Assembly: GCA_048882505.1 (NCBI GenBank) | Contig: JBHLRO010000003.1 | Location: 60,001-92,000, forward strand | Source of the DNA: Candidatus Thorarchaeota archaeon | GTDB taxonomy: Archaea > Asgardarchaeota > Heimdallarchaeia > Hodarchaeales > Hodarchaeaceae | Direction: 5' to 3' | Length of the DNA: 32,000 nt | In this document: positions 16,100 through 28,708 of the stretch, in pieces | How the letters are laid out: each line of letters starts with the position of its first letter | Numbering within the stretch: position 1 is the stretch's first letter | Position numbers and translations under genes: made by a program | The notes under the pieces: generated by a model | The model's input: only the letters and a program-made list of their open reading frames with translations | Databases searched by the model: none | What the model was told of the DNA's origin: nothing

Positions 16100-16435
16100 A
16101 TGGACGAGTTTGATCTAATCCGAATTGCTCTATTTGGCATTTGCATGATGATTAGTATTGTCACCATCTTGAAACAAACAAGACTGTCCGGTGTGTTTGG
16201 AACGAGTAATAAATTGATCAGTACAGGCGTTCTAATGCTATCCATAACTTTTCTTACTCAAACCATTTATGCATTCATAGGGATTCAGGATCCCATTTGG
16301 CATCCTATAATTCAGCTCGTTTTACTCATGAGTACCTCTTTGGGATTAGGTCTTATCTTTTTTGGATTATGGAAAGTTACCTTATTCTTCGACGAGCTAC
16401 ACAATCAGGCAGTAGGATCTCCTAGTTCGACTTAG
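16100..16435 (+). CDS. Small 3-TM membrane protein
   Basis: 111 aa with three clear hydrophobic helices, 33 bp upstream of the longin gene on the same strand. Confidence 0.8.
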   Translation: MDEFDLIRIALFGICMMISIVTILKQTRLSGVFGTSNKLISTGVLMLSITFLTQTIYAFIGIQDPIWHPIIQLVLLMSTSLGLGLIFFGLWKVTLFFDELHNQAVGSPSST

Positions 16436-24565: not shown

Positions 24566-26341
24566 ATGGCCGATTCTAATTCTCGGAAAAAACAGCTCCT
24601 CGCAGCGTTAATCTTCCTTATTACGCTCATTTCTGGATTTTTTCTTGCTTTTATTACGAATACGGGGTATGGTTCCATCCAGATATCACGCGTTGGCATT
24701 TCAGAGGATTCTATAAACATCAACGGGATAATTTATCGTCCACTTACAGCCACAATTAATGATCCCAGACCCGCAGTGGTTTTAGCTCATGGTATTTCAG
24801 GTAGCCAGCAGATTATGAACGGAATTGCTCTAGAACTTGCACGACGAGGATTTGTAGCTCTGGCAATTGACCTAAAAGGACATGGAAATTCAGGAGGAAG
24901 TCTTTCATTTAGCGATCCAACATTAGGAACCCTTTCAGCCGTTAGATATCTTGAACTACAACCGTTTGTAAACGGATTGAGTGTTGGACTGATCGGACAT
25001 TCATTGGGCGGAGTCGCAGTCCGAGCAACGGCCTTTGCACATAAGAATATATCAGCTGTAGTTACTTTAGGTAGTCAATCTGCCTGGGCAGGGAATGAAT
25101 CCGTTTATGGGATTATAAACACAACCTTTCCTCGGAATTTCCTTTTTGCAGTCGGTAGATATGATGAGCTGTTTGGTGATTTGAATGAATTAAGAATAGC
25201 CCTTATGCCTGTGTTTGGAACTGAATCCCCCGTTATCGCGAATTCGATCATATATGGGGATTTTCGTTTTCAGAACGCCCGTAAACTCGTGATATCAGAT
25301 ACAATTCATCTATTGGAACCGGCAGATCCCTTTATAGTTTCAGAGATTTTGTCCTGGATGGATGCATCCCTCTGGGGAGGTCGAAATGCTATTATCCCTT
25401 ATGACAACCAGATATTTCTTATTCGAGAACTAAGCTTACTGGCTGTTACGATTTCTCTTCTATTGTTGATTGTACCTTTATCTAACATACTTTATGGATC
25501 GGAAGCGTTAAAGAATTCGCAGCCATCGGCCTTTAATCCAAAGAAAGGTTTTGATGGCAAACTAGGGATTTTGGTGTCTGGATTAACCTACGGCGGGCTG
25601 AGCATTATTCTATTTATCCCCATGGTGATAATTGGATTCGTTATCAATATACCACCCCTAATATTCGGAGCTTCGACTGCGTGGTGGCTCCTTGCGGTCG
25701 GTTTGACGGGATTAGCGATGGTCAAGATATTAAATCGGCTATCCTTGATTAATGCAAAGATAGACCTAAAGCGTTTTTTTTCTCACCTTGAATCGGAATT
25801 TATGTCCAGGTATACTCTTCTATTAGTCTTGGGATATTTCGCAATCCTATATCTTCTGATCCTTTTTCTGGAGATATTGACAGCTCTTGATCTTCACTTT
25901 ATAGTCCCTATTTTTAATGATCTTTTCCCTCCTTCAAGATTAATAATCTTCGTTCTTTTTATCCCATTTCTGCTCACATATTTTGTTACTGAAGCTATTT
26001 TGTTCCTTGAACTCTCCCCTGACGCCGAGTTTGGTAAAGAAATAACTGGTAGTTATAGGGGTGCAATTCGATTGCTGGCTATAAGAACAGCACCAATAAT
26101 AGCTGTGTTAGCCTTTCAATATGTTCCGAAATTCCTGTTTAATGTTCTACCTATAAGTTGGGGATTAAGCCCCTTACTTTTTCAGTTCTTTTGGGTCATG
26201 TTGCCATTGTTTGCTACCACCAGCCTCATTTCATGGTGGGGATTCCGAGTTACAGGACGAATCGGAGGTGGAGCCTTGCTCAATACTCTTTTACTCTCTT
26301 GGATGCTGGCTTCCCAATTCCCGTTTGGATCGTTTTTATAA
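24566..26341 (+). CDS. Membrane-embedded alpha/beta hydrolase (N-terminal TM, hydrolase domain, multi-TM C-terminal half)
   Basis: VVLAHG, IDLKGHGNS, GHSLGG (Ser), YDEL (Asp), IHLLEP (His), then about 8 hydrophobic segments. Confidence 0.88.
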   Translation: MADSNSRKKQLLAALIFLITLISGFFLAFITNTGYGSIQISRVGISEDSININGIIYRPLTATINDPRPAVVLAHGISGSQQIMNGIALELARRGFVALAIDLKGHGNSGGSLSFSDPTLGTLSAVRYLELQPFVNGLSVGLIGHSLGGVAVRATAFAHKNISAVVTLGSQSAWAGNESVYGIINTTFPRNFLFAVGRYDELFGDLNELRIALMPVFGTESPVIANSIIYGDFRFQNARKLVISDTIHLLEPADPFIVSEILSWMDASLWGGRNAIIPYDNQIFLIRELSLLAVTISLLLLIVPLSNILYGSEALKNSQPSAFNPKKGFDGKLGILVSGLTYGGLSIILFIPMVIIGFVINIPPLIFGASTAWWLLAVGLTGLAMVKILNRLSLINAKIDLKRFFSHLESEFMSRYTLLLVLGYFAILYLLILFLEILTALDLHFIVPIFNDLFPPSRLIIFVLFIPFLLTYFVTEAILFLELSPDAEFGKEITGSYRGAIRLLAIRTAPIIAVLAFQYVPKFLFNVLPISWGLSPLLFQFFWVMLPLFATTSLISWWGFRVTGRIGGGALLNTLLLSWMLASQFPFGSFL

Positions 26342-26368: not shown

Positions 26369-27409
26369 TTAAGCTATTGACCTTGCAAAGTGGAACAGTT
26401 TATCCTTGTGTAGAGGTGCTGCTTTTCTAACCTTGGAAAGGATCACATTAAGTTCATCCGCTTTGAGATCTCTTCGGAACGCTTGTATTTCTTCTTTTGA
26501 GACGCTTTCATGTTGAACCAAGCGAATGAGATCTCCTGATTTTGTCATTAATCGGCCAATATAACCGTGTAAGACGGTTTCGTGCGTTTCCTCGGGAGCT
26601 ATCTGTAATGTATGAATTAGATTATCTACGCTCGGTGTGTTTTTGAAATGGGAGTAAATTTTTCTATTGTCAACATCAACCCGCGTTATATTGGCTTTTT
26701 CATACCGCCTTAGAAAATCAACTTGAGAGGAGCAGATAATTAGATCCTTATCCTTAGGATCCAGAAAATTTGTCGCATAATCACGTTTTAATGACCGATG
26801 CGGCACCAGAAGCGCGATAGACTCAGTAACCTTATGAAGGATCTCCTTAATCTGACCGTAAAGGATGACCGGTTCCTCTAATAGTAACGCATAGATAATC
26901 TGTCCTAACTGGTCAGGAAAATATTGAAATAAGAAATCTAAATCACCTGTCTCAAAGTTTTTGTCAAGTGATCTCTGAATACGCGCTTTAATATCGGTAA
27001 AAGTCTCGGATTGCGTTGAATTCCTTTCTATTTGTGTCAAGATAATATTCTTTAATCGAGGCTTTAATTGGTCGAATATTGTTGTATCGATAATTAGATC
27101 TTCCTTTCTATAAGCTGTGTACGAGTGTTCTACTGCTTCTTGAACTTTTAGAAGCGTACTATACCATGCTTCGGAATTAACATTCTTTGTAATTGCAAGT
27201 ACAGAAAAAACCGCTCCAGATCCAGCCATCAATAGTGTAGAACTCTTGGTTTGAAAGGAATCCAGCTCACCTATCTTTAAATCAGTGGACATACCTCGTA
27301 ATGCAGCGAGAAACCCACCGAAGAGAACTTCGTCTATCTTCATAGAGTCTTCAAGGTTTACTGAACAGATGGGTATTCCTGAGTTTTTTTCCACAACCCA
27401 TAGGCCCAT
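26369..27409 (-). CDS. Longin (uDENN)-cDENN-dDENN-like protein
   Basis: MGLWVVEKNSGIPICSVNL...DEVLFGGFLAAL is longin. LDFLFQYFPDQLGQIIYALLLEEPVILYG...LHKVTESIALLVPH matches the cDENN pattern, and a helical C-terminus follows. The likely start is ATG 27409, not 27562. Confidence 0.75.
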   Translation of the reverse strand: MGLWVVEKNSGIPICSVNLEDSMKIDEVLFGGFLAALRGMSTDLKIGELDSFQTKSSTLLMAGSGAVFSVLAITKNVNSEAWYSTLLKVQEAVEHSYTAYRKEDLIIDTTIFDQLKPRLKNIILTQIERNSTQSETFTDIKARIQRSLDKNFETGDLDFLFQYFPDQLGQIIYALLLEEPVILYGQIKEILHKVTESIALLVPHRSLKRDYATNFLDPKDKDLIICSSQVDFLRRYEKANITRVDVDNRKIYSHFKNTPSVDNLIHTLQIAPEETHETVLHGYIGRLMTKSGDLIRLVQHESVSKEEIQAFRRDLKADELNVILSKVRKAAPLHKDKLFHFARSIA

Positions 27410-27730
27410 AAAGTCCTCAACGCTTGTCCTGTCACCGAGTGGCTCAGTTCTCAATACAGACCACGATCCAAAGAAGTTTAAGACGAATGAATATGTGAAA
27501 TGATTTAATCTCACTCCGATTTCAATCCTAAAAAAATTATCCAAACTGATGAATGAAGACAAAAGAAGTTGAGAAAGAATTCTCTAAGAGCGAACAATCT
27601 ATTTCACAAAACGGAACTAAATGATGTTCTTAACCAGTAAATTTCTAAACTACTCGTGTGTTTTTCTAGCCAATAACCATCAGTTCAAAAACACTTGGCC
27701 CAGAAAACGATTTTGCCCGGTTTAAGAAAC

Positions 27731-28708
27731 TTACAGGAATTCGCTAAGCTTTACCCTTGTCAATTCTCGGCGATATCGTGAAATGCGATCATTTGCGAGT
27801 GCACAATATTCCTCGCTAGTGTCAAAACCAATGAAGCGACGCCCTGTTTTTAATGCAGCAAGCGCCGTCTGTCCACTTCCCATGAATGGATCTAAAACGA
27901 TATCATTTGAGTAGGAATATAATTGGATACAACGATACGGCAGTTCAACCGGAAATGGAGCAGGGTGGCCTACGCGTTTGGCGGATTCAGTGGGAAAGGT
28001 CCATACACTTTTCGTGTATGTTAGGAACTCGTCTCGTGAAATCGTACTATCTTTGTTATCTACTCTTGGTCGTTTAAATTTTCCCTTTGAAAAAACCAGT
28101 ATGTACTCGTGAACATCACGGAGAGTGGGATTACTTGGAGATTGCCAACTACCCCACGCGGTAGAAGTACCAGCACTGGCTGATTTATCCCAAATAATTT
28201 CCCCTCGCATCAAGAACCCTATGCGATCCAAGATATCGATAATATATGTATGAAGGGGGATATAGGGCTTACGTCCGAGGTTGGCGATATTAATGCAGGC
28301 CCTACCTCCTGAAACTAATGATCTGTAAACCTCTTGAAATACAGTCTCTAGGAATGAGACATAGTCGGATAGAGAGAGATCTTGATCATAATCCTTACCG
28401 ACTGAGTAAGGGGGACTAGTAACCGTGAGATGAATGCTGTTATCGGGAAGCTGGTTCATCTGTTCAGCTGATTGACAATAGATCTTGTCTAGCAGATCTG
28501 GATCAAGGGGTGTTTCGCGGTACGGCCCTGATTCTTCCGTTTTTATTCCTGAATATAGTTGTTTATTATAGAATTCCGAAGAATCGTGACCTTCACGACC
28601 AGAAGTCCCAAATGAACTTGTCTTAGTTCGTCTTCGTCCCTTTTTTTGACTCTTATTGGACAAGGAATATCCGCAACAGAGGTTTGTTTTATTGGGCCAA
28701 CTTCCCAC
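27731..28708 (-). CDS. Beta-class N4-C/N6-A DNA methyltransferase, orphan
   Basis: VTSPPY (motif IV) precedes VLDPFMGSGQT (motif I); also HPAPFP and HEYILVFSK. The start may be TTG 28663. Confidence 0.93.
   Translation of the reverse strand: MGSWPNKTNLCCGYSLSNKSQKKGRRRTKTSSFGTSGREGHDSSEFYNKQLYSGIKTEESGPYRETPLDPDLLDKIYCQSAEQMNQLPDNSIHLTVTSPPYSVGKDYDQDLSLSDYVSFLETVFQEVYRSLVSGGRACINIANLGRKPYIPLHTYIIDILDRIGFLMRGEIIWDKSASAGTSTAWGSWQSPSNPTLRDVHEYILVFSKGKFKRPRVDNKDSTISRDEFLTYTKSVWTFPTESAKRVGHPAPFPVELPYRCIQLYSYSNDIVLDPFMGSGQTALAALKTGRRFIGFDTSEEYCALANDRISRYRRELTRVKLSEFL

Follow-up and report, generated by a model that had tools for sequence, protein, structure and literature searches.

The minus strand of a 32,000-nucleotide stretch of an Asgard archaeal genome (Candidatus Thorarchaeota archaeon, of the order Hodarchaeales in the Heimdall group; assembly GCA_048882505.1; positions 60001-92000 of contig 3 in a 4.3-Mb genome that is 94.6% complete; hereafter the window) carries a gene that an initial annotation had read as encoding a compact longin-DENN protein. 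The questions raised by this locus are whether that reading is right and what such a protein might do in an archaeon. In eukaryotes, longin-DENN proteins regulate the Rab, Arf, and Rag GTPases of membrane traffic and nutrient signaling, and their presence in the Heimdall group bears on the origin of that machinery. The architecture was already known in Asgard archaea: DENN domains were reported there in 2020-21, as were Heimdall proteins organized exactly like FLCN (folliculin), with longin plus DENN (Liu et al., bioRxiv 10.1101/2020.10.19.343400), and the later literature lists DENN domains among the Asgard eukaryotic signature proteins. To this we make two modest additions, the replacement of a longin domain and a candidate pair made up of the window protein and one of its paralogues. 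We consider it fairly probable that the window protein, a chimera that we call paralogue A, is a subunit or platform for the regulation of a GTPase and forms one half of a longin-DENN dimer.

The frame is a real, conserved gene. A word-indexed search recovered 23 homologous proteins with E values from 1e-49 to 1e-223; those with a named source all came from metagenome-assembled genomes of Hodarchaeales, Hodarchaeota, Promethearchaeota, or Thorarchaeota, and all were labeled hypothetical and had no Pfam domains. The identity to 22 other proteins was 33 to 78%. An exhaustive phmmer search of 1.84 billion cluster representatives returned only 34 proteins at an E value of ≤0.001. According to the list of open reading frames (ORFs) and their translations, the minus-strand ORF spans 26369..27562 and gives 397 amino acids (aa) from its first TTG. 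The 346-aa protein that the initial annotation had placed at 26369-27409 is exactly what the ATG at 27409 within this ORF yields, and the strings quoted from it (GLWVVEKNSGIPI, EVLFGGFLAAL, DLIICS, and TRVDVDNRKI) are all present. The gene call on record is the 361-aa form, starting at TTG 27454. In the alignment, this TTG coincides with the initiator Met of the three nearest homologues, one of which has a Leu at the position of the internal Met of the window protein. On the other hand, GAGGA lies 4 nucleotides upstream of ATG 27409, and either codon may therefore be the start; the 15 extra N-terminal residues of the 361-aa form were modeled as disordered.

The protein is predicted to fold as a longin followed by cDENN and dDENN, the layout of the DENN-module superfamily. 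The AlphaFold2 (AF2) model, computed without templates from an alignment of 23 sequences and numbered on the 361-aa form, had a mean predicted local distance difference test (pLDDT) score of 74.5, with values of 80 to 92 in the DENN half. The predicted longin strands (E) and helices (H) are E15-22, E28-32, H42-55, E64-68, E72-78, E82-89, H94-118, and H125-147, and an invariant S-G-I-P turn precedes strand 2. The linker was modeled as disordered (residues 148-168, pLDDT below 50), and the tail forms five helices (H274-285, H288-314, H320-327, H332-345, and H347-357), with pLDDT values of 84 to 91 over residues 274-357. In a Foldseek search against the PDB, ranks 1 to 16 were all longin-DENN proteins (C9orf72, SMCR8, DENND1A/B, FLCN, FNIP2, and DENND10; E values of 9e-9 to 1e-4), followed by longin and Roadblock proteins. 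Whole-chain TM-scores were low (0.27 to 0.41, with a root mean square deviation of ~20 Å), which we attribute to a difference in how the two lobes are placed relative to each other, as each lobe taken separately overlays well.

A VIA-align search, which is independent of Foldseek, gave the same picture. The DENN half was matched to the folliculin DENN crystal structure 3v42_B (Z score of 15.1; 3.1 Å over 178 residues; model residues 166-346), to DENND10 8p0v_M (Z of 14.3; 3.6 Å over 173; 169-354), and to DENND1A 6ekk_A (Z of 11.1; 5.5 Å over 176; 168-352). These alignments cover the cDENN-like domain, and those to FLCN and DENND10 reach into the tail, up to model residues 346-354. The N-terminal domain was matched to the longins of VAMP7 (Z of 14.2; 2.4 Å over 121; 9-143) and Sec22 (Z of 13.6; 2.7 Å over 127; 14-148) and to the Lokiarchaeal longin 8yqg (Z of 13.2; 2.9 Å over 135; 9-149). 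With the whole chain, full-length FLCN 6nzd_H scored a Z of 15.1 over 311 residues. The Z of SMCR8 was 13.5. The ESM Atlas cluster nearest to residues 167-361 is from Heimdallarchaeota, and 23% of its members carry the Pfam Folliculin domain. Thus, the tripartite layout of longin, cDENN, and helical tail that had been proposed agrees with the AF2 model, Foldseek, and VIA-align, and the residues after the longin adopt the cDENN fold in the predicted structure.

By sequence alone, membership in the DENN superfamily would be marginal; it is the fold, together with sequence signals that stay below threshold and are consistent with one another, that suggests it. The window protein matched Pfam DENN (PF02141) with an E value of 0.019, its 15.4 bits falling short of the gathering score of 23.4, and the expectation of a DENN-family profile match was therefore borne out only narrowly. 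With HMMER, the family profile matched the SMCR8 DENN domain with an E value of 0.43, and a broader profile of 28 sequences did so with an E value of 0.018, on the core motif and at SMCR8 residues 723-755. The C9orf72-like family (PF15019) was matched in three family members only, with E values of 0.0088 or weaker, DENN too was matched below threshold in family members, and a remote full-length relative (P0055) scored 22.2 bits with Pfam Folliculin, for which the cut-off is 23.3. No NCBIfam family matched the window protein, and a single-sequence search of PDB sequences gave nothing meaningful. The Pfam matches SpmSyn_N, Phytochelatin, and GIT1_C were discarded as noise, being below threshold and without support from the fold. 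The core motif had been placed at about 26795-26944, with a gap of four residues in its middle; the motif is there, within slightly narrower limits, while the gap from YG to LHK is five residues long (QIKEI). Its invariant columns in the family alignment are F159, L160, F164, E179, P180, G185, and P203.

The genome of the window encodes four full-length longin-DENN paralogues, and the comparison of A with paralogue B indicates a domain swap. The two are 39% identical over A residues 73-345, while the first ~75 residues could not be aligned by either BLASTP or profile-profile comparison, and an hhalign comparison spans A residues 78-346 only. When the DENN halves were placed in a maximum-likelihood tree, A grouped with B in one clade (support of 100/100) on a long branch, apart from the remaining Asgard paralogues. 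Within this clade B was monophyletic (93/99), while A was not resolved at its base. Against paralogues C and D, the match of the B profile starts at position 1-4 and that of the A profile only at about position 142. The B-type longin is therefore ancestral in the family and the longin of A a replacement. As read from these alignments, A is a chimera in which a DENN half that is a close copy of that of B is joined to a longin of another lineage. The first 130 residues of A are 23 to 43% identical to stand-alone longins of 155 to 171 aa, nine genomes from the genus of the window genome carry frames of this type, and the longin of A also matches the N termini of two larger proteins, one with a Ras/Roc GTPase domain (P0049, 478 aa) and one with a Gtr1/RagA GTPase domain (P0057, 548 aa).

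The two longins also differ in their structural relatives. The model of A resembles SNARE-type longins, TRAPP longins, Roadblock, and MglB, while that of B resembles the GATOR1 NPRL subunits, the Lst4 longin, FLCN, and C9orf72; the B model had a mean pLDDT of 66.9 and a poorly modeled cDENN and was used only for the family matches of its longin. The N terminus of A is thus predicted to be a longin, as had been proposed, and one that matches those of VAMP7 and Sec22; its lineage is another than the folliculin or uDENN type of the paralogues. In the longins of GTPase-activating proteins (GAPs), namely FLCN, SMCR8, C9orf72, and NPRL2, the loop that leads into strand 2 ends in a Gly-Pro (G-P) motif, with a catalytic arginine finger of the longin domain (R164 in FLCN, R147 in SMCR8) beside it, and G-P longins in Heimdallarchaeia have been discussed (PMC12290439). 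Paralogue B has an invariant D13, G17, and P18 and a near-invariant Phe12 (aromatic-D-x3-G-P), with D13 four residues before G17. This is the spacing of W33-D34...G38-P39 in C9orf72, a motif described as specific to GAP-type longins (PMC12290439). At the equivalent turn, the window protein has the S-G-I-P sequence instead of G-P, with an Ile between the Gly and the Pro in all 11 subfamily members too, so that the GAP-type motif is not in the window protein or in subfamily A, and it also lacks the WD motif of C9orf72. Reading the alignment only, R38, in helix 1, is the one Arg that is invariant across the longin half of subfamily A, and no conserved Arg was found in the β-hairpins.

Compared with the characterized systems, the window protein shares most with the DENN proteins described in Asgard archaea by Liu et al.: it belongs to the same phylogenetic group and has the same two-module architecture, paralogue families, and lack of database annotation. 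It differs from them in that its gene stands outside a Roadblock-GTPase-DENN operon and in that its longin was replaced from another lineage and is not of the folliculin or G-P type. The longin-plus-DENN layout is common to FLCN-FNIP2 and to yeast Lst7-Lst4, and FLCN was the best match for both the DENN half (3v42_B) and the whole chain (6nzd_H). However, the identity to FLCN-FNIP2 is 9 to 13%, and the window protein lacks the G-P motif and the long inserts of FLCN and FNIP and has no Rag or Ragulator genes nearby. The best Foldseek matches were to C9orf72-SMCR8 (the CSW complex, an Arf/Rab GAP; 7mge_C with an E value of 9e-9 and 6lt0_C with 7e-8), and the SMCR8 cDENN motif was the only sequence-profile match in the PDB. 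With DENND1A/DENND1B and DENND10, the window protein shares the bare tripartite DENN module of ~350 to 380 residues without accessory domains (Foldseek E values of ~1e-7 to 3e-6), at an identity of 10 to 14% and with its score below the Pfam DENN cut-off.

These relationships suggest a cytosolic protein that would consist of the longin and the DENN module (cDENN and dDENN) only and would most likely serve as a binding or regulatory platform for one of the ~50 Ras-superfamily small GTPases of the genome. We infer a role in GTPase regulation because every characterized eukaryotic longin-DENN protein binds a small GTPase. Of the matches in the genome, 51 are to the Ras family and 17 to Gtr1/RagA (about 10 of the latter being strong), and none falls within C3:60001-92000, in line with the earlier remark that the window lacks a small GTPase gene. 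The window protein would probably be a subunit of a dimer in which longin contacts longin and DENN contacts DENN, as in FLCN-FNIP2 and C9orf72-SMCR8. It seems more likely to confer specificity without being catalytic (like FNIP or NPRL3), or to be a platform of the guanine nucleotide exchange factor (GEF) type, than to be a GAP itself; a non-GAP role is favored by the missing G-P motif in A and by its chimeric origin.

Complex prediction lends weak support to a heterodimer of A and B. The pair scored 0.32 against 0.00 for the best control, in a procedure that had passed 58 of 80 solved complexes along with 2 of 110 mismatched pairs; scores of ≤0.60 included only 7 of the 80 solved complexes, yet both of the passing mismatches. 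Across the A+B runs, at least 28% of the contacts agreed and the pLDDT of the partner was at least 78. A more specific proposal, which we regard as unlikely but worth stating, is that A and B form an archaeal heterodimeric complex of the FLCN-FNIP or C9orf72-SMCR8 type, in which B would supply a C9orf72-like D-x3-G-P pocket and A the target specificity through its swapped longin. If this were true, asymmetric two-subunit longin-DENN regulators of GTPases would predate eukaryotes, and the longin replacement would show how subunit asymmetry can arise. The window gene is a compact, unannotated member of the family that should express easily, and A and B together make a concrete pair for asking whether archaeal longin-DENN proteins already act as asymmetric dimers on small GTPases.

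Several observations weigh against a dimeric GTPase regulator as the function of the window protein. The passing A+B prediction may show likeness more than binding, since FLCN-FNIP2 and C9orf72-SMCR8 have already been solved. The joint occurrence of A and B does not discriminate between the hypotheses: a survey of 22 genomes of the genus yielded full-length A in 7 and full-length or near-full-length B in 14, B accompanied A in 6 of these 7 but was also found in 8 of the other 15, and these relatives are not independent samples. The longin itself (residues 15-147) was modeled with moderate confidence (pLDDT of 51 to 80), and no match reached the curated sequence-profile threshold of DENN (PF02141), C9orf72-like (PF15019), or Folliculin (PF11704). 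In no ORF of ≥100 aa in the window was a small-GTPase domain found, and the longin-DENN gene is in an operon with neither a GTPase gene, a Roadblock gene, nor any other trafficking gene. An operon of a LAMTOR1-like Roadblock, a Rab-like GTPase, and a DENN protein has been described in Asgard archaea (bioRxiv 10.1101/2020.10.19.343400), and it is not at the window locus, where the longin-DENN gene neighbors genes for a membrane-domain alpha/beta hydrolase and a DNA methyltransferase. The neighborhoods of three homologues had no genes common to one another or to the window; with neighborhoods that differ in this way there is no genomic tie to any particular GTPase, and a link to a GTPase through guilt by association was dropped.

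The same evidence bears on other explanations. A single chain might hold one Rab- or Arf-like GTPase clamped between the longin lobe and the DENN lobe and stimulate the release of GDP, as a self-sufficient monomeric GEF of the DENND1 type. G-P longin proteins are heterodimeric GAPs and DENND1 is a monomeric GEF (PMC12290439; PDB titles), and the window protein lacks the G-P motif tied to GAP-type longins (PMC12290439), is with 346 to 361 aa the size of a bare DENN module, and has the Rab35 GEFs DENND1A/DENND1B among its best structural matches (Foldseek E values of 1.6e-7 to 2e-6, VIA-align Z of 11.1). However, the DENN half matched folliculin (Z of 15.1) and DENND10 (14.3) better than DENND1A (11.1), the existence of four paralogues together with the weak heterodimer signal points to a dimer, and no GTPase gene is linked to the window gene, so we hold a monomeric GEF to be improbable. 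The match to DENND10 in the Commander complex (8p0v), one of the two best for the DENN half (Z of 14.3), raises instead a DENN-fold scaffold without a role in GTPase regulation, that is, a structural subunit of a larger assembly. The lack of a GTPase in the neighborhood would fit such a scaffold, as would the strictly conserved C-terminal tail (DELN and KLFHFARS), which resembles a protein-protein interface. Against it, longins of the type that the window protein carries are also fused to Ras/Roc and Gtr1/RagA GTPase domains, the set of GTPases in the genome is expanded, and all other characterized relatives act on GTPases; we judge this explanation to be somewhat less probable again than the monomeric GEF. 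An artifact, either a chance ORF or a mismodeling by AF2 towards DENN, is very improbable. The sequence-only evidence is below threshold and the model alignment holds only 23 sequences, but the ORF is conserved at 33 to 78% identity in 22 other proteins, no templates entered the model, two independent aligners ranked only longin-DENN proteins at the top, the separately modeled paralogue B yielded the same family, and the weak sequence matches landed on the structurally equivalent motif. A subunit of a dimeric regulator of a small GTPase stays our preferred reading of the window protein.

Table 1. Coordinates of the longin-DENN gene, its predicted domains, the paralogues, and other ORFs of the window (P0001 is the 346-aa form; model residues follow the 361-aa form)
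Feature	Coordinates	Strand	Size or residues	Remarks
Longin-DENN gene (paralogue A)	26369..27454	(-)	361 aa from TTG 27454 (P0002) or 346 aa from ATG 27409 (P0001)	
Stop codon of the gene	26369-26371	(-)		
N-terminal longin, predicted	27011..27409	(-)	P0001 residues 1-133	beta-beta-alpha-beta-beta-beta-alpha plus one further helix; AF2 and VIA-align
Variable linker	26951..27010	(-)	P0001 residues 134-153	low confidence; length-variable and gapped in the family alignment
cDENN-like alpha/beta domain, predicted	26636..26950	(-)	P0001 residues 154-258	model residues ~169-273, pLDDT 80-92
Core conserved cDENN motif	26801..26941	(-)	P0001 residues 157-203	LDFLFQYF...IIYALLLEEPVILYG...LHKVTESIALLVP, ends LLVP; matches SMCR8 residues 723-755
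dDENN-like helical tail, predicted	26372..26635	(-)	P0001 residues 259-346	near-invariant FR.DL..DELN and C-terminal KLFHFARS
Paralogue B	L002:1489-2580		363 aa	
Paralogue C	L003:1489-2589		366 aa	
Paralogue D	L004:1348-2436	(-)	362 aa	
Alpha/beta-hydrolase gene	24566-26341	(+)	591 aa	converges on the longin-DENN gene
N6_N4 DNA methyltransferase gene	27731-28708	(-)		directly upstream of the longin-DENN gene
ORF without Pfam family	16469-17749	(+)		
ORF without Pfam family	16100-16435	(+)		

The genes around the longin-DENN gene in the window are ordinary archaeal housekeeping genes, including those for the phenylalanyl-tRNA synthetase (PheRS) alpha subunit, endonuclease V, RidA, a PALP-family (pyridoxal phosphate-dependent) enzyme, and a RIO kinase. 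Its immediate flanks are the convergent hydrolase gene and, on the same strand, the DNA methyltransferase gene 170 to 320 nucleotides upstream, the distance being set by the start codon used. The hydrolase has an N-terminal alpha/beta-hydrolase domain (Pfam Hydrolase_4 and related) and a long hydrophobic C-terminal half. The methyltransferase matched its Pfam family with an E value of 4e-49, and no restriction-enzyme gene was recognized among its scanned neighbors. The counts from a scan for promoters and terminators, which was not designed for archaeal promoters, equaled the shuffle expectation. Among sequencing runs that contain this DNA, none is of RNA; the DNA runs are metagenomes from sediment or of unspecified type and come from two studies, of which one may have supplied the DNA itself.

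Among the three homologous loci examined, one has a pair of genes for a Robl_LC7 protein and an Arf/Ras-type GTPase (L006:11202-12240) ~4 kb downstream of the homologue; the pair is not in the other two. In the genome of the window, paralogue D (G000:C5:185222-185947) lies 5 to 10 kb from the Ras-family matches C5:179906-180400 and C5:174850-175353. A 152-aa minus-strand frame (L005, at G000:C13:98844-99260) matches the B-type (G-P) longin only, is apparently stand-alone, and lies ~3 kb from the Ras-family match C13:95651-96133.

Beyond the genus, the DENN half gave weak matches only. A 653-aa minus-strand protein (L009:2046-4007, at ~84.5-86.5 kb of G000:C17) has ~100 C-terminal residues that resemble the longin of A (28.8 bits) and a long N-terminal region that, by eye, resembles a helical repeat; several genomes of the class have frames of 650 to 710 aa with the same match to the longin of A. 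The stand-alone longins related to that of A include P0027, P0028, P0031, P0033, P0034, and P0036 and frames such as G007:C53:89968-90411 and G001:C78:10689-11144; six of the eight that were aligned end in a conserved LE[DE][ST]GLW. The closing GLW is the tripeptide that opens longin strand 1 in the window protein and some of its relatives, and it could represent a tail motif or mimic a strand.

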